From NCBI GenBank assembly GCA_964459085.1, contig CAYWND010000001.1:1-37844 (forward strand): a DNA stretch of 37,844 nucleotides, written 5' to 3'. The position numbers and the translations under genes are program-made. Source of the DNA: an uncultured Oceanibium sp. (GTDB lineage Bacteria; Pseudomonadota; Alphaproteobacteria; Rhodobacterales; Rhodobacteraceae). Of this stretch, positions 5,611-23,695 are shown one piece after another (position 1 is the first letter of the stretch; each line of letters opens with the position of its first letter). A model generated the notes under the pieces. The model saw nothing but the letters and a program-made list of their open reading frames with translations, searched no databases and was not told the DNA's origin.

Positions 5611-6435
5611 CTATGACTTGCTGCAGCCGACACACATCGGCATGAAAAGGTCCGGTTGTTTAGGGTTCTTACGAGGCGCTGATTGGCCCCAGCCAAAGCC
5701 GTGCAGGCTGAATGCTTCCGCCTCGAGATCGTCCAGGCGCTTACCCCAACCGGGGTCGTAGGCCGCCGCCTCAAGTCTCTCAGCAGCAGTCTGCATGGTG
5801 CCACACATGCATTCACCGGATCGACACAAAGCCTGGGCAACTGGACTGAGCGGCACGTTGCGCGTGCGCAAGTATTCGTCGCGCATTTCTGCCGACCAAT
5901 CGTGCATCAGGTTGAACCAGATATTCATTGGCGCGGCAGGATCTTGTCTGGCGCGGCGCAGGTGTGTTTTCCGGTTGGTGCTCTCGGCTTTGAATGCGCC
6001 GTTCAATAGCAGCACTGGCGTATTACGCTTGCCCCTTCTTAGCTCAGACGAGATCACCTTGCGAAAGGGCTGTGCTTTTAGGATGCGGTAGGCAAAACTG
6101 TGCGCGTCGATGCCCTTTCCGAAGAAGCCTTTGCGCAGCACGTAGTCCTGATATGCGTCGCCCGCGTCGGCAACAGCCAGCGGGGCGTCAGTGCCATAAT
6201 TTGCTGTAACGTAGTCCGTCGCTCCTTGCAGGCCGCAGCCAGTTCTCCCGTGGATTGTTAGTGTGATAGGAAGGCCAAGCTCCAATGCTAGAGCGTGACA
6301 AGCGGCACTATCATGCCCGCCCGAAACCATCGTTACGATTGCCTTTGGCTGATACCATTCAATCGCAGTTCGCGCGTAGAACGCTGATTGCGAGATCGCT
6401 TGTTCGAGCGTGTCTGGCGGACGGTCAAAGTTCAT
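5611..6435 (-). CDS. PAPS reductase family (adenine nucleotide alpha-hydrolase) protein
   Basis: PP-loop VSGGHDS, HDWS...YL, RSGECMC and terminal CVGC cysteines. Confidence 0.8.
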   Translation of the reverse strand: MNFDRPPDTLEQAISQSAFYARTAIEWYQPKAIVTMVSGGHDSAACHALALELGLPITLTIHGRTGCGLQGATDYVTANYGTDAPLAVADAGDAYQDYVLRKGFFGKGIDAHSFAYRILKAQPFRKVISSELRRGKRNTPVLLLNGAFKAESTNRKTHLRRARQDPAAPMNIWFNLMHDWSAEMRDEYLRTRNVPLSPVAQALCRSGECMCGTMQTAAERLEAAAYDPGWGKRLDDLEAEAFSLHGFGWGQSAPRKNPKQPDLFMPMCVGCSKS

Positions 6436-9605: not shown

Positions 9606-10330
9606 ACAAGGGAATTGCCCGGGCGATCGACATTCTGAAATCCGAACGCCAGACGCTGAGTGATGCGATCGACGCAATGATGATTGATCTCGATGGGCTG
9701 GATCGTGCGATTGGCGCCCTGTCGTATCTGTCACCGAATGAGGACAGCCCCGACCAGGTCGAGGATGGCGAGGAGGCGGCGAATGGGACCGCCGATGGCT
9801 GCAACACGGGGATGGAAGATGCCCCCGTCACGTCAGATGAGGGGGATACCGAGGATGCAGACGACATCCTGGACTTGCCGCGATGTGAGCAGCTGTCAGA
9901 CCTGGGCGAGGCAGAGTGGGAAGCGTGTTACGAGGCCTGGCAGACCGGCGCTAGCGTATCCTGGATCTGCGAGCGGGTTCTGCCCGGCCGCTACAATCAG
10001 TTTTCGGTGGCCTTCAAGGTCTACCGCGAAACGCGCGGCGAAGATCCTGATCCGGAACAGTCCGAAAAGCCTGCAGTCAAGGATCCGGATCGCAATCGCG
10101 AAGACAGCGGCTGGACCTTCGCCGATGACATCCACCTGCTTGATCAGACAAAGCGGGGTGTTCGCGCCGGCAGGATCGCCGGCGACCTGGGCGGTGTCTC
10201 TGCTGAGGATGTGATGGCGCGGTTGACGCTGCTTGCTGGACCGCACCCCAAGGCTTCGTTGCTAGACAAGGTTCTCGCGGAACTCCGATTGCTGCTGGAC
10301 CGCGAGAACGCGGCGATGGCCGCCGAATGA
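9602..10330 (+). CDS. Acidic protein with C-terminal GcrA-like HTH
   Basis: GWTFADDIHLLDQTKRGVRAGRIAGDLGGVSAEDVMARL resembles the GcrA N-terminal motif WT......L......G..A..IA..LGGVT...V. Confidence 0.55.
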   Translation: MNKGIARAIDILKSERQTLSDAIDAMMIDLDGLDRAIGALSYLSPNEDSPDQVEDGEEAANGTADGCNTGMEDAPVTSDEGDTEDADDILDLPRCEQLSDLGEAEWEACYEAWQTGASVSWICERVLPGRYNQFSVAFKVYRETRGEDPDPEQSEKPAVKDPDRNREDSGWTFADDIHLLDQTKRGVRAGRIAGDLGGVSAEDVMARLTLLAGPHPKASLLDKVLAELRLLLDRENAAMAAE

Positions 10331-11475
10331 GCGATCTTGTCGCCTTCGATGAAATCGTCGAAGCGCTGAAAGCGCGGGCGCTGGATGTCGCCGAGCGCTA
10401 CGCGCCTGGCGGGTATGTCGATGGCGACAAATACTGGGCCCGCAATCCCGGCCGTGACGATCGATCGATCGGCAGCTTCTGCGTCAACCTGGCCGGGGCC
10501 TACGCCGGCCGGTACCAGGATTTCGCGACCCACACCTCGGGCCTGGTTCAGAAGGGCGACATGCTCGATCTGATCCAGATCGGGCTGAACACCGACCGCA
10601 GGGGCGCGCTCGAGGAGGCCCGGGCGTTCCTGGGCCTGGCAGAGGAAACGCCGGCACAGCGACGTCTGCGCCAGCGCGAGATCGCCCGGGCCCGGGCCGA
10701 TGCAGATCGCCGAAAGCGGGACCTGGCTGAAACCAAGCGCAAGCACCGTGGGCACGCACACAGGCTTTGGCTGCAGTGCCGCGCCGAGCTGCAGGATACG
10801 CCGGTCGCGGGCTACCTCGAGGGGCGCGGCCTGGTCTTCGATTGGCTGGGCCGCTTCCCGCGCTCGATCCGCTATCACCCCAGCCTGCCCTACAGTCACA
10901 CCGACAAGGATACCGGTGAGATCCTCGAGGGCGAGTATCCCTGCATGGTCACCTGTTTTTACGGCCCCCCTGCAGCTGACGGCCGCCCGCAATTCTACGG
11001 TGTGCATCGGACCTGGCTGGCCCAGGATGATGCCGGTGTCTGGCGCAAGGCGCCGGTGCCCAAGCCCAAGAAGATCCTGGGCAGCCAGAAAGGCGGGTTC
11101 ATTCGTCTGTGGTCCGGCATCGGCAAGCGGGGCGGCAAGGGTCCTGCCCTGGCCAAGGCTGCGATGGGTAGCCGGGTCTACATCACCGAGGGCATCGAGG
11201 ACGGGCTGAGCGTCGCCCTGATCTCGCCTGCGGCCCGTGTCCTGGTCGGCATCACACTGGGCAACCTGGCCGAGATCAAGCTGCCGCCAGCGATCACCGA
11301 GGTCTACCTGGTTGCGGACAATGATCCAGGCAAGCAGGCGCAGAAGGCCCTGGCTGCGGCCGAGATGCATTTCGTGAAGCGCGGGCGCGATGTGCGCACC
11401 TGGCGCGCGCCCGCGCCCTTCAAAGACATGAACGAGTACCTGATCCACACGCTGAAATCCCAGGGGGCAGCATGA
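10327..11475 (+). CDS. Toprim-domain DNA primase
   Basis: NPGRDDRSIGSF N-terminal domain, GDMLDLI, GVHRTWL, ITEGIEDGLS, LVADND, FKDMNE. Confidence 0.88.
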   Translation: MSDLVAFDEIVEALKARALDVAERYAPGGYVDGDKYWARNPGRDDRSIGSFCVNLAGAYAGRYQDFATHTSGLVQKGDMLDLIQIGLNTDRRGALEEARAFLGLAEETPAQRRLRQREIARARADADRRKRDLAETKRKHRGHAHRLWLQCRAELQDTPVAGYLEGRGLVFDWLGRFPRSIRYHPSLPYSHTDKDTGEILEGEYPCMVTCFYGPPAADGRPQFYGVHRTWLAQDDAGVWRKAPVPKPKKILGSQKGGFIRLWSGIGKRGGKGPALAKAAMGSRVYITEGIEDGLSVALISPAARVLVGITLGNLAEIKLPPAITEVYLVADNDPGKQAQKALAAAEMHFVKRGRDVRTWRAPAPFKDMNEYLIHTLKSQGAA

Positions 11476-13005: not shown

Positions 13006-14892
13006 ATGAGCGACAACGACAACAAACCAGGCCGCCCGGACCTGCGCGTGATCCGGGATGAACTCGAGAACGCTCCACCCGTCGGCGGGCCAGATGCGCC
13101 CGACGATCCACCCCCACCCCCACCCCCGCAGGATGGGCCAAAACGCGACACGCGCGGGCGCTTCGGGGATCTCGAACGCACGCCTGGCGAGATCTATCCG
13201 GGCTGCCCTGTCAAGGCGCTCGGAGTGTCCGGTAAAGCCTGCTATTACCTCGATTATCTCAAGCGGGTGTTCGATCTTTCGAACCACACCAAGAACGACA
13301 TCAGCCTGATTTTTGGCGGTCGCGAGGATCTGCTGATCGATTGGTTCCCTGCCTACGGCAAGGACGCGAAACAGCCCAACGGCTGGAAGCAGGACCACGC
13401 CCGGGCGGCGATGATATCCGCCTGCCGCGAAATGGGTGTCTGGGATCCGTTCGAACGGGTCCGGGACGTGGGTGCCTGGCCCGACAGCGATGGCGGTGCA
13501 ATCCTCAACTGCGGGGATGCTGTTTGGTACCGTGGCCAGTGGCGTCAGACGGGCGAGCTCGATGGGTATATCTACCCGTCCGCGCCGCCCGTACCGCGTC
13601 CAATCCTGCCCAACGATCCGGAGGCGCCACCACGCGAGGCCGGCAGCGTCGGCCACGACGTGCTGGAGACCCTGGAAACCTGGCGCTGGCTGCGTCCGGA
13701 CATCGATCCTTACCTGGCGTTCGGGTGGACCTGTGCGGCCCAGCTGGGCGGCGCGCTGGGGTGGCGGCCGATGATCTGGATCAGCGGCGACAAGGGCACT
13801 GGCAAATCGACCCTGCAGGAGCTGCTGAAATCGCTCATGGGCGGATCGTCGGCGGTCCTAGCCACATCGAACACGACCGAAGCCGGTTTGCGCCAGTATC
13901 TCGGGCACAGATCGATCCCGGTGGAGCTCGATGAGATGGAGCCAGACAGCCGGTCGGATCGCATCAAGCATATTATCCACCTGGCGCGCCAGGCGGCGTC
14001 TGGCGGCCTGGCGCTGCGCGGTGGAGCGGATCACAAGGGGCAGACCTTCGTCGTTCGGTCCTGTTTCATGTTCTCCTCGATCCTGGTGCCGCCGATGCTG
14101 GACCAGGACATCAGCCGCATGGCGCTGCTGTCGCTGTTGCCGCTCGAGCGCGGCCAGACCGCCCCAAACCCGAACCCCGAACACTGGATGAAGATCGGCC
14201 AGCTCCTGCGCGGCCGGATGCTCGACCAGTGGCACCGCCTGCACGAGACGCTGGAGCGGTACCGCGCCGCCTTGTCGGGCGTCGGTCACAGTGCGCGCAG
14301 CTGCGACCAGTTCGGCACGCTCCTGGCGATGGCGGATCTCGGGCTTTACGACGATGTGCCCGAGGTCGAGACCTGCGAGGCCTGGGCCGAAAAGCTACGC
14401 GCCGAGGTGATCCAGGAGGCCAGCGACGAGCGTTCGGATTGGGAGCGGATGCTGTGGCACCTGTTGACCCAGCCGCTGGATGTGTTCCGGTCTGGCGAGC
14501 GCAAGACGGTCAACACCTGGATCCGCGAGGCGGCGCGCCTGATCGACAGCGATACCACGGCCGAGACGGCAGACCGCGCGCTTGGCAACATCGGTTTGCG
14601 AGTGCTGGGACGCGGCGAGGAGGCACAGCTTGCCGTGGCCAATGTCAACACCGGCCTGGCTGACCTCTTTCGGGACACGCACTGGTATGCCAGCGGTGGC
14701 CAAACTGGCACCTGGTCACAGTCGGCCGCGCGCATCCCTGGCGCACGCAAGGGCAATACCCGCTTTCTCATGATGGGGTCGCGATGCACGATCTTTCCGC
14801 TGCGCTCGATCCCCGAATTTTTGGCGTCAGACGACGCGTCGCAGGGCGATAGCCCGGCGACACTTTCTCACCCCGACCCAATCGAAACTTGA
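13006..14892 (+). CDS. Replicative helicase (SF3-like P-loop NTPase)
   Basis: Walker A GDKGTGKST, Walker B ELDEME; lies between primase and iteron region. Confidence 0.8.
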   Translation: MSDNDNKPGRPDLRVIRDELENAPPVGGPDAPDDPPPPPPPQDGPKRDTRGRFGDLERTPGEIYPGCPVKALGVSGKACYYLDYLKRVFDLSNHTKNDISLIFGGREDLLIDWFPAYGKDAKQPNGWKQDHARAAMISACREMGVWDPFERVRDVGAWPDSDGGAILNCGDAVWYRGQWRQTGELDGYIYPSAPPVPRPILPNDPEAPPREAGSVGHDVLETLETWRWLRPDIDPYLAFGWTCAAQLGGALGWRPMIWISGDKGTGKSTLQELLKSLMGGSSAVLATSNTTEAGLRQYLGHRSIPVELDEMEPDSRSDRIKHIIHLARQAASGGLALRGGADHKGQTFVVRSCFMFSSILVPPMLDQDISRMALLSLLPLERGQTAPNPNPEHWMKIGQLLRGRMLDQWHRLHETLERYRAALSGVGHSARSCDQFGTLLAMADLGLYDDVPEVETCEAWAEKLRAEVIQEASDERSDWERMLWHLLTQPLDVFRSGERKTVNTWIREAARLIDSDTTAETADRALGNIGLRVLGRGEEAQLAVANVNTGLADLFRDTHWYASGGQTGTWSQSAARIPGARKGNTRFLMMGSRCTIFPLRSIPEFLASDDASQGDSPATLSHPDPIET

Positions 14893-21204: not shown

Positions 21205-22177
21205 GCAGTATCTGTGGCAGTTTCGGCCGTTTTGGGCCCCAGCCGGCGACCCGCCGCCTGCAGACCCGCCGCCTGCAGATCCTCCCGCGGATCCGCCGCC
21301 TGCGGACCCCCCTGCAGACCCGCCGCCTGCTGATCCGCCGGCTGGTGCCTGGTGGGACGGCGAGGCCTTCAAGGAGGTGCGCGATCATGTCGTCAAATCC
21401 GGGCTGACCACCGAAGACCGGGACGATGCGCTCCTGAAAGCCATCACAATGCACAAGGGCGCCGAGACCATGCTGGGCGGCAAGGCCGAGGGCCTACTGC
21501 AGAAGCCTAAGGATGGCCAGGATCTGGGCGAGTATTTGCGCGCGAATGCTGAGACCTTTGGGATCCCTGAAAGTGCCGAGGCCTATGATCTGGGGATCGA
21601 CACTGAAAACCTGCCTGCGGGTGTCGGGTACGATGCCAAGCTGGACGGTGCGGTGCGCGAGGTTGCCTTCCAGCACGGGATTGGAAATTCCGCGCTGAAA
21701 GCGCTTGCCGGCGCATATACCGAGCACCTGGCCAAAGTCGAGGACGGGATCAACACCGAATATTCCAATGCCAAAGCCGAGCTTGACCAGAAGCTGCAGG
21801 CCGATTGGGGCGATCAGTACAACGCCAAGGTCAACCTGGCACAGCGCGCGGCCCAGTTCATCGGTGAGAAGGCGGGCCTGGATAGTGCTGGGCTCGAGTT
21901 GGCGTCGCAAGCCCTGGCCGCCAAGGGGGGCGATGCCTCGACGCTGCGGATGTTCGCGGCGATCGGCGAGATGCTGGGCGAGGACACGCTGATTACCGGC
22001 GGCGCACCCCAGCACTTGGGTGGCATGACACCGGCCGAAGCCAAGGCCGAGCTGGAGCGCTTCATCAGCGCCGATGGCGACTACGGCAAGGCCGCGGCGC
22101 GAAACGACAAGAAAGAGTTGGCGCGCCTCGATCCCAAACGCGAGCAGTTGATCCGGCTGGCATCACAGGCGGCGTAG
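21194..22177 (+). CDS. Capsid scaffolding/assembly protein
   Basis: Pro-rich N-terminus, PESAEAY, LQADWGDQY, IGEMLGED, TPAEAKAE; upstream of capsid gene. Confidence 0.8.
   Translation: MTIEQYLWQFRPFWAPAGDPPPADPPPADPPADPPPADPPADPPPADPPAGAWWDGEAFKEVRDHVVKSGLTTEDRDDALLKAITMHKGAETMLGGKAEGLLQKPKDGQDLGEYLRANAETFGIPESAEAYDLGIDTENLPAGVGYDAKLDGAVREVAFQHGIGNSALKALAGAYTEHLAKVEDGINTEYSNAKAELDQKLQADWGDQYNAKVNLAQRAAQFIGEKAGLDSAGLELASQALAAKGGDASTLRMFAAIGEMLGEDTLITGGAPQHLGGMTPAEAKAELERFISADGDYGKAAARNDKKELARLDPKREQLIRLASQAA
21248..21343 (+). repeat. Coding tandem repeat (DPPPA/DPPA) x7
   Basis: 12/15-bp degenerate units in the scaffold N-terminus. Confidence 0.85.
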
Positions 22178-22271: not shown

Positions 22272-22418
22272 CTAATCGGGGTCCTTGGGAGGCCGCCTGT
22301 CCGCTTGGTCCTTTTTGACCTGGCAGTAAATCAGATAGGACACGGCCAGCGCTGCTAGAGCGGCGACCATTTCGAAGAAGTTGGTGAGGACGGGGAGGTG
22401 TTCAAAGATCCACTGCAT
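22272..22418 (-). CDS. 48-aa single-TM small protein (moron; not in the ORF track)
   Basis: MQWIFEHLPVLTNFFEMVAALAALAVSYLIYCQVKKDQADRRPPKDPD*; GAGAAGG upstream; fills an otherwise empty intergenic gap. Confidence 0.6.
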   Translation of the reverse strand: MQWIFEHLPVLTNFFEMVAALAALAVSYLIYCQVKKDQADRRPPKDPD

Positions 22419-22604: not shown

Positions 22605-22633
22605 TTGACAAGATCTAGCGGCGCGCCCATCCT
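22605..22633 (+). promoter_or_regulatory. Sigma70-type promoter for the capsid gene
   Basis: TTGACA-N17-CATCCT preceded by an A/T tract. Confidence 0.6.
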
Positions 22634-22643
22634 GCCGCGCAAC

Positions 22644-22780
22644 ACCGGGTAGTCCGACATAGGGTCCGGTTGACCGCCCGAACAGGGGGCCGTTTAGCTG
22701 GCGTAACCAGCAGGGCGGGTCCGGCTCGAGCGGGTAGTCCTTCCGAAAACTCATCGACATCGTTGTTTTTTCTGGAGGGC
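22644..22780 (+). ncRNA. Candidate cis-regulatory RNA in the capsid 5' leader
   Basis: Two copies of a GGG-UAG-UCC/GGGUCC bulged helix and an anti-SD stem 22737-22749/22768-22780. Confidence 0.6.
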
Positions 22781-22783
22781 ATA

Positions 22784-23695
22784 ATGCTCGACGTCCTGGT
22801 GGAACAGCACCACAAACTGTCCTTTTCGGCATCCGTCGATCTGGCAAACCAGCAGCTTGGATCCAAGCTGCGCATGTACTTCGATGAAAAGGCCTGCAGC
22901 GGCGAAGCGCAGACCGCATCGGAGATCATCGAAACGATCGAGGCGCAGCGGTCCACGGGCCGGCCGCGGTCGAACATCGAAAACGTGGCCAAGCGCACGC
23001 GGCGCTGGCTGATCTGGCGCGACGAGATCAAGTCGGGTCAGTATTTCGACAAGGAAGACAGCTTCCGGCAGATCGATCGCCACGACAGCGAGGTCGTCCG
23101 CGGCCACACGGCAGGCGTCAATCGTTGGGTCGATCGGATCTGCCTCGGCATGGATGCTGACGGCAACATCGATGCCGGCGGACTGCTGGGTCCGGTCAGC
23201 GAGGGCAAGCGGCCCGAGACCGGCACCGTTGCATTGCCGGCCGCCAACACGACTGACCATGGCGGCACCGGCATGACGATCGCGAAGCTGCGCGCTGCGC
23301 GCCTCAAGCTGGCAACGGATGAAAACGACCTGGACCGCATGACGGTCAACGTCGCCATCACCCCGAACCAGACCGACGACATCCTGGCGATCGTCGAGGC
23401 CGCGGGTAGCAACATCAACCTCCTGGATCAAGACGCCCTGAAATCGGGCCGGATCCCTGGCCTGATCGGGTTCCGGTTTGTGGAAACCAACCTGCTCTAC
23501 AAGGACGGGAACATCCGCTCCTGTCCGGTCTGGACGCAGGACCACGTCTGCCTGGGCGTCTGGGAAGACGTCAACGGCAAGATCTGGAACGACGGCAGCG
23601 CCGACAACCTGCCCTACGCCAAGGTCTGCGCGACCATGGATGCCACCCGCAAGAAGGATGAGGGCGTCCACATCCTCGAGTGCGACGAAAGCTGA
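22784..23695 (+). CDS. Major capsid protein (BPP-1 Bbp17-like)
   Basis: GGAGGG RBS, ATG 22784; QQLGSKLR, RRW, GFRFVETNLL, ATR..DEGV..LECDE; position after scaffold. Confidence 0.88.
   Translation: MLDVLVEQHHKLSFSASVDLANQQLGSKLRMYFDEKACSGEAQTASEIIETIEAQRSTGRPRSNIENVAKRTRRWLIWRDEIKSGQYFDKEDSFRQIDRHDSEVVRGHTAGVNRWVDRICLGMDADGNIDAGGLLGPVSEGKRPETGTVALPAANTTDHGGTGMTIAKLRAARLKLATDENDLDRMTVNVAITPNQTDDILAIVEAAGSNINLLDQDALKSGRIPGLIGFRFVETNLLYKDGNIRSCPVWTQDHVCLGVWEDVNGKIWNDGSADNLPYAKVCATMDATRKKDEGVHILECDES

Follow-up and report, generated by a model that had tools for sequence, protein, structure and literature searches.

Comparative sequence evidence for a five-helix capsid leader RNA whose twin bulges co-vary with a predicted scaffold protein in podophages

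Background

How a tailed phage matches capsid protein to scaffold protein if each gene is transcribed from a promoter of its own is, as far as could be searched, an open question. It is raised by a 37,844-nucleotide stretch of DNA from an uncultured Oceanibium sp. (GenBank assembly GCA_964459085.1, contig CAYWND010000001.1), called the window below. This 37.8-kb contig belongs to a temperate podophage and encodes an integrase, a repressor, terminase, portal, tail tube and internal virion proteins. A sequence-only reading of this DNA had proposed that the capsid gene has its own promoter and a leader in which two UAG-bulged hairpins are wired to a switch that occludes the Shine-Dalgarno (SD) sequence. 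A leader read by the scaffold protein would, if true, provide a direct mechanism and name the residues and bases involved.

Results

Setting of the capsid gene

The features of the locus are collected in Table 1. The capsid protein of the window is 24-33 % identical to HTVC010P-like capsids. The predicted scaffold gene sits between the portal and capsid genes; the genes at the same position in HTVC100P, HTVC028P and Lederberg carry the annotation 'capsid assembly protein', and the product in the window is presumed to be the scaffold.

Table 1. Features of the capsid locus in the window
Feature	Position	Strand	Remarks
Predicted scaffold (capsid assembly) gene, 327 aa	21194-22177	+	phrog_3742, weakly phrog_458; proposed ligand
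Scaffold N-block, residues ~51-100	21344-21493	+	holds S69, T85, M86, H87 and E91, which co-vary with the bulge
Predicted sigma-70-type promoter	22605-22633	+	TTGACA 22605-22610, 17-nt spacer, CATCCT 22628-22633
P1, bulged helix, site 1	22644-22670	+	bulge UAG 22650-22652
YGA linker, P2, CG, P3	22671-22711	+	P2 hairpin 22676-22690, P3 hairpin 22697-22711; covariation
P4, ON helix, bulged, site 2	22712-22745	+	bulge UAG 22735-22737; takes up the anti-SD
Switch segment (anti-SD)	22738-22744	+	ON partner 22713-22719, OFF partner the SD
P5, GAAAA/UUUUC stem	22745-22772	+	compatible with ON and OFF states
Shine-Dalgarno GGAGGG	22774-22779	+	sequence; predicted paired in the free leader
Major capsid protein gene	22784-23695	+	PF19821/phrog_3437, HTVC010P-like; proposed regulated gene

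The promoter TTGACA-N17-CATCCT claimed for the capsid gene is exact in sequence and finds support in the homologs, where 61 of 98 leaders have TTGAC at 37-42 nt upstream of P1, compared with 89 of 2661 background windows (3.3 %). TTGAC-17-TATAAT was also seen by eye upstream of the modules in VP2, ZP6 and K227; the promoter scan did not list the TTGACA-CATCCT site on the + strand. The gap between scaffold and leader varies from about 50 to more than 2000 nt across homolog loci, and this variable gap together with the fixed TTGAC spacing fits a capsid transcript that begins at P1. Its start is predicted near 22640, just before that helix.

Several further observations were made in and around this region. 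A word resembling the NrdR box (pattern adapted by eye from the consensus) is present at about 22608-22620 in the window and in homolog promoter regions. At a distance of up to 85 nt from P1 it was found in 53 of 98 leaders, whereas shuffles would give 16.4 and it occurs in 88 of 558 windows of capsid coding sequence; it is a lead for host control of the capsid promoter. The scaffold-leader gap in loci L005-L125 is an insertion hot spot, and matches to C4 antisense RNA lie inside it in L110 (1467-1552) and L007 (1052-1135). In the window a moron-like 48-aa ORF with a hydrophobic middle (22272-22418, - strand) lies between the scaffold and capsid genes on the opposite strand, with its own promoter-like site (22587-22559, - strand); its leader contains a direct repeat of 10 nt. 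Elsewhere, a phosphoadenosine phosphosulfate reductase-like gene (5611-6435, - strand) adjoins the integrase gene, and the replication module has two separate primase-family genes, 10327-11475 and 13006-14892 (phrog_510, phrog_35358).

A leader RNA conserved upstream of related capsid genes

Capsid homologs gathered from viral, metagenome and genome contigs gave 84 distinct upstream regions including that of the window. A covariance model built on 52 upstream regions, which match by construction, matched exactly once in every one of the 100 loci given, and each match ended where the capsid gene starts; loci L002 and L003 were without a match. In the fitted alignment 27 of the 34 modelled pairs showed changes on both sides and 90.3 % of cells were paired, a level reached by 0 of 500 shuffles, slid registers being much lower. 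Both-sided changes were still found in 26 of the 34 pairs on a MAFFT alignment not fitted to the model. The folding stability of the window leader alone is no better than that of shuffles (z = -1.1), and the fold is accepted as real because of comparative covariation, not single-sequence stability. On this comparative evidence the capsid leader is a conserved five-helix RNA family composed of bulged P1, P2, P3, bulged P4 and P5, and the bulged-hairpin pairing proposed earlier from a single sequence is borne out upstream of homologous capsid genes.

The two bulged hairpins of the sequence-only reading (22644-22670 and 22717-22740, GGG-UAG-UCC versus GGGUCC with the strands swapped) were placed exactly and are contained in P1 and P4. 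The G-C, G.U and C-G pairs flanking the P1 bulge are nearly invariant. All 9 modelled pairs of the P2/P3 region showed both-sided changes, with G22672, C22691 and A22696 as conserved unpaired bases, as did 6 of the 7 pairs of P5. The P4 extension pairs G22713-C22744 and G22714-C22743 are each formed in 99 of 100 leaders, the latter with replacements (GC 90, AU 8, CG 1), one pair surfacing as an MI pair; the A22712/G22745 juxtaposition is invariant (100/100). Conservation of unpaired CG letter pairs (22691-22692, 22702-22703, 22744-22745) and of the YGA linker (22671-22673) suggests tertiary contacts outside the model.

When viral contigs were scanned independently with a pattern, there were 102 matches, of which 81 lie directly before a capsid homolog recognized by HMM, plus 1 more; 2 are full leaders before other genes and 18 were, by eye, without the other elements. 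A single-protein scan of viral contigs found nothing. Among 18 distant phage records examined, the bulged module occurs twice in nine (HTVC010P, C22, 1.182.O, MW202898, MW202742, ZP6, YeP6, VP2 and K227), one copy being read by eye in three of them; 4 were partial or unclear and 5 had little or no intergenic leader. Bulges in distant records were assigned by eye because a generic bulge detector gives false positives. A G-UAG/U loop identical to that of the window is present twice each in VP2, K227 and ZP6. An element of the host chromosome was considered and rejected: the window's own genome has one strong match, and 150 genomes of the same order gave 4 weak ones (21-27 bits).

Full leaders were also observed away from capsid genes. 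A second one in locus L418 (G241:C1:35850-36001, - strand) carries CAA/CAA, the same type as the capsid leader of that phage, and precedes ORFs labelled from sequence as a 95-aa membrane protein and a 334-aa endolysin-like protein, a possible second target. Another, with UAG/CAG bulges, in locus L323/L195 (G240:C1:14153-14298), lies before an ORF resembling a tail fibre; the contig is a fragment without a scaffold match.

The motif had not been recognized as a named family, which agrees with the searches made. Rfam 15 gave 0 matches in the window at gathering score, and the leader stayed without a match when E values up to 10 were allowed; none was found at the leader in 20 homolog loci, nor in 14 distant loci with an E limit of 0.5. 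In a kink-turn, tandem G.A and A.G pairs follow a bulge of 3 nt, and here G.U and C-G flank both bulges. A C-loop has a C-A-A/C strand closed by U-A on one side and G-C on the other; the closing pairs found are C-G (99/100) and G.U, and the loop has seven states of its RN letters. CsrA/RsmA sites are described as GGA in hairpin loops (PMC4347634); the hairpin loops of the leader are variable and its conserved sites are bulges. A hammerhead-like reading was discarded by eye, its core sequence not being conserved. A small-molecule riboswitch would combine an expression platform with an invariant pocket for its ligand; the leader has an expression platform and invariant unpaired bases, but its two sites vary in step with a protein. 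The leader is a real RNA family for which no catalogued match was found, and a protein partner is strongly indicated.

Exclusive pairings of the switch segment

The segment 22738-22744 has two mutually exclusive partners, as the sequence-only reading had supposed for its anti-SD. In 86 of 100 leaders 6 or all 7 of its pairs with the SD region can form, and the resulting OFF fold is predicted to be favoured in 93 of 100, by a mean of 6.3 kcal/mol. Forcing the ON fold raised the predicted accessibility of the SD in 87 leaders of the 100, the median going from 0.02 to 0.39. The two middle bases of the anti-SD are mostly unpaired in ON (paired in 25 and 47 of 100), and both are paired in OFF in 91. 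The helix between anti-SD and SD is conserved and hardly covaries, own tails giving 6.30 pairs versus 6.23 for foreign tails (tails one base short for L021 and L111); the CCC of the anti-SD is required for P4 regardless.

In the window the longer anti-SD 22737-22749 pairs at 12 of 13 positions with 22768-22780, two of the pairs being G.U, just as claimed. A helix CCGCCC/GGGCGG, assumed to break hairpin 2, fared only partly so well: the strands are complementary and paired in the window's own MFE structure, but the helix is not conserved (39.7 % of cells paired, equal to shuffles) and is not the switch. By comparison of the leaders the conserved competing helix is 22713-22719 with 22738-22744. 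The two sites differ in this respect, site 1 having a G-C closing pair and no competing partner, whereas the closing pair of site 2 (100/100) exists only in the ON fold.

The models of the window leader itself favour OFF by about 12 kcal/mol. With a bonus of 12 kcal the SD was caught in a hairpin with the coding start and remained largely paired, and with ON forced its accessibility was only 0.34. This modelled behaviour speaks against the window leader being a plain two-state switch; such models take no account of non-canonical contacts.

Identity of the two bulges

The consensus of the bulge site is GGG-Y-R-N-C opposite G-U-C-C. Its RN letters (bulge positions 2 and 3) are AC in 38 leaders, AA in 26, GA in 11, AG in 7, GC in 7, AU in 6 and GG in 5. 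Whatever these letters are, the two copies share them in all 100 leaders, with chance values of 65 and 36 for the two positions, which bears out the notion of two equivalent sites. UAG as such did not survive as the motif: the first copy is UAG in 4 of 100 leaders, and the window is the only UAG/UAG leader among them. On a tree of 94 capsids, from which 6 short or misframed rows were left out, the RN letters change at least 27 times and always together in both copies. By MI, the position-3 letters of the two copies form the strongest pair in the whole RNA, exceeding all Watson-Crick pairs, and those of position 2 come tenth; the variable positions neighbouring the bulge letters have MI at or near chance. 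In distant records the first bulge letter may differ between copies (HTVC010P, ACAA/AGAA) and the last two match.

Gene conversion between the copies was rejected as an explanation, position 1 matching in only 72 of 100 leaders and nearby stem positions being at or near chance. A third partner in cis was also sought, and none was found among the model columns. On either strand of the window there is no third exact copy or complement of the bulge site, nor any C4 match of the kind that a C4-type antisense RNA acting in trans would bring; this search covered exact copies, and short partial complements could escape it.

Co-variation with the predicted scaffold protein

A screen of the capsid protein, the scaffold and two neighbouring genes pointed to the N-terminal block of the scaffold. 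Among couplings of 579 protein with 132 RNA columns, the top six join M86, S69 and H87 to the four bulge letters (z 9.8-13.1), and the co-variation maps to scaffold residues 65-91. In a nearest-neighbour test on 69 loci the best scaffold window predicted the bulge in 55, chance being 25 %, as against no more than 35 for capsid windows, no more than 32 for windows further along the scaffold, and 36 for the leader itself. No strong column was found in the downstream 150-aa gene or in the gene before the scaffold gene. Of the two ligands proposed earlier, the scaffold is therefore the probable one, and the capsid protein, of which no window or column tracks the bulge, finds no support.

Two rules describe the relation. 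Column 219 (M86) is Gly or Ala in 35 of 36 loci with a pyrimidine at position 3 versus 0 of 33 with a purine (rule 1), and column 220 (H87) is Glu in 16 of 16 loci with G at position 2 versus 0 of 53 with A (rule 2). On the capsid tree rule 1 has 10 independent pairs, 9.7 going the same way and 0 the opposite (p ~0.002 for a column chosen post hoc), and rule 2 rests for Glu on 4 independent pairs (p 0.125). Fixed beforehand, the rules held in 19 and 22, respectively, of 22 held-out scaffolds (Fisher p 0.0015 and 1.3e-5), which are less than 90 % identical to the training blocks yet are kin of them (48-75 % block identity), two of them being near-identical, and whose loops were read from printed leaders. 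Exceptions to rule 1 amount to 3 of these 22, 1 of 69 training loci and 2 of 8 distant phages (C22 and YeP6). M86, H87 and S69 of the window agree with its AG bulge type.

The RN letters change 14 times on the N-block tree versus 25 times on the tree of the scaffold C-part and 24 on the capsid tree, yet the C-part and the capsid gene are physically nearer to the leader. Loci L372 and L373 have capsids that are 91 % identical, CAA versus CAC bulges, and I-Y versus G-H in their scaffolds. In distant phages the N-block, read mostly by eye, was visible in 8 of 8 with leader and scaffold read and absent from 2 of 3 leaderless ones, Vibrio 1.257.O keeping a short N-block without a leader; an HMM finds it clearly in only 2-3 of the 8 scaffolds, and the scaffold alignment is too variable for a locus scan. 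A site-like word, judged as a sequence word only, occurs near the scaffold start in 5 of 47 cases versus 7 of 144 background windows. Taken together, the couplings make it very probable that the scaffold reads the bulge letters.

The N-block is accordingly a predicted RNA-binding domain. In the AF2 model the scaffold is all-helical, with a long helix at 165-226, and the N-block has pLDDT of about 90 and a helix at 76-94. A homodimer model of residues 50-230 scored 0.61 versus 0.32 for the best control, the runs agreeing in at least 87 % of contacts, with pLDDT of at least 79; of 30 solved homodimers 20 reach the mark for this score, as does 1 of 23 single chains. The model places residues 65-66, 69, 83-88 and 90-91 at the interface, where the co-varying residues may form a composite RNA surface or be partly buried. 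Fold and sequence searches with the scaffold found no solved relative, BFVD matches at E <=0.001 were unnamed or uncharacterised save for one CARD label, and the Atlas neighbours of the N-block share no Pfam family. A PPAD-type proline repeat of low model confidence begins the scaffold (21251-21340), ahead of the N-block.

Discussion

The proposed mechanism is that the N-terminal domain of the scaffold binds the twin bulges, holds the leader in the fold that frees the SD and so activates capsid translation; its probability is put at roughly 0.6. Under its own promoter the capsid gene would not be tied to the scaffold gene by co-transcription. The unbound leader would relax to the SD-paired OFF fold, in which the closing pair of site 2 breaks. 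Free scaffold, probably as a dimer, would bind sites 1 and 2 in the same shape, keep P4 extended and open the SD, which would restrict capsid synthesis to the time during which unassembled scaffold is available. The free leader is predicted to be OFF, and only the ON fold gives site 2 the shape of site 1, so binding of the scaffold likely activates; given the scaffold as the reader, the models make activation the probable sign.

The best of the other explanations, itself unlikely, is that the scaffold binds both bulges and does not activate, either repressing or being anchored on the capsid mRNA so as to capture coat protein as it is translated, while the SD stem only dampens initiation. Co-variation does not tell the direction of the effect, and the SD of the window opens poorly in the models. 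This reading is opposed by the G-C closing pair of the read shape, which site 2 has only in ON, and by the free leaders that are already predicted to be OFF in 93 of 100 cases, which leaves little for a repressor to do.

It is improbable that the bulges contact each other by like-with-like pairs, or that another factor reads them, the link to the scaffold being mere linkage. Strict identity of the copies would then need two changes per switch and not three, all four like pairs are seen at position 3, and the screen covered the scaffold, the capsid and two neighbouring genes only. Linkage, however, should not confine the signal to three residues of one block and spare the nearer part of the scaffold and the capsid, nor should scaffold rules predict held-out cases, and the window is without a third exact copy or complement of the site.

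Very improbable is an action of the leader, with or without scaffold, on transcription or mRNA stability through pausing, processing or 5' protection. P5 does end in a U-rich strand and the structure begins at the predicted start, but no terminator was called in the leader, the U-run is paired and covaries with GAAAA, and the switch segment is complementary to the SD. Autoregulation by the capsid protein or silencing of the capsid gene in the lysogen, both suggested earlier, has in its favour the integrase and repressor genes of the window and the adjoining capsid gene, but it is extremely improbable in view of the poor prediction of the bulge from capsid windows and of the duplicated module before the capsid genes of VP2, ZP6 and HTVC010P, presumably lytic phages.

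A broader form of the activation by scaffold is offered only tentatively. The reading of two bulge letters by residues 69, 86 and 87 would be a family-wide RNA-protein code in which each scaffold activates only its own capsid leader, forming orthogonal groups among co-resident relatives, and the chaperone would license its client from Rhodobacteraceae prophages to HTVC010P-/VP2-like phages, in some also a lysis or tail-fibre gene. If true, translation of the client would be switched on by its own assembly chaperone, in a family to which HTVC010P-like marine phages belong. The at least seven natural pairs of an RNA site and a small domain with a readable code would be useful in studies of RNA recognition and are candidate orthogonal switches.

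A literature search, mostly without subscription papers, found no account of this leader RNA or of scaffold-activated capsid translation. Other leaders are found at phage head genes, Mu-gpT-DE being a candidate one and GP20-a/b (Rfam RF02991, RF03003) being likewise covarying leaders upstream of phage head genes. Covarying csRNA leaders upstream of capsid genes were described by Fremin et al. 2023 (PMC10690425), whose Table 3 covers HK97, N4, T7-like (PHA00201, capsid_maj_Podo) and DUF5309 capsids and contains none of the labels tried for the present capsid family; the accessible text names no ligand for them. These csRNAs are set apart from the leader by table labels and descriptions, and an overlap with a fragment is possible. 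The descriptions from Weinberg 2017 (PMC5737381) that were compared do not include the leader.

With phage P22 gp8 the present scaffold may share a connection between its N-terminus and translational control, the co-variation here mapping to N-terminal residues. P22 gp8 represses its own gene, a translational autoregulation that was reportedly described by Wyckoff and Casjens in 1985. The accessible part of a preprint implicates the N-terminal part of gp8 in translational control tied to head assembly (bioRxiv 10.1101/2022.12.13.520362). Unlike gp8, which acts on its own gene, the scaffold here would target the capsid gene through two sites and an SD switch, with predicted activation.

A phage protein that binds a leader to open the initiation region is also known from phage Mu. 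Com is a zinc-finger activator that binds the mom leader at one site and opens its blocked initiation region. It is a dedicated activator, whereas the protein proposed here is a structural assembly protein with two sites and a variable code. In ribosomal-protein leaders a protein represses its own operon via mRNA structure, and T4 gp32 is described as being under autogenous control by repression of its own operon. The likeness is that a protein senses a structure in an mRNA and so keeps the components of an assembly in proportion; those proteins repress their own operons, while the scaffold would license a separately transcribed partner gene.
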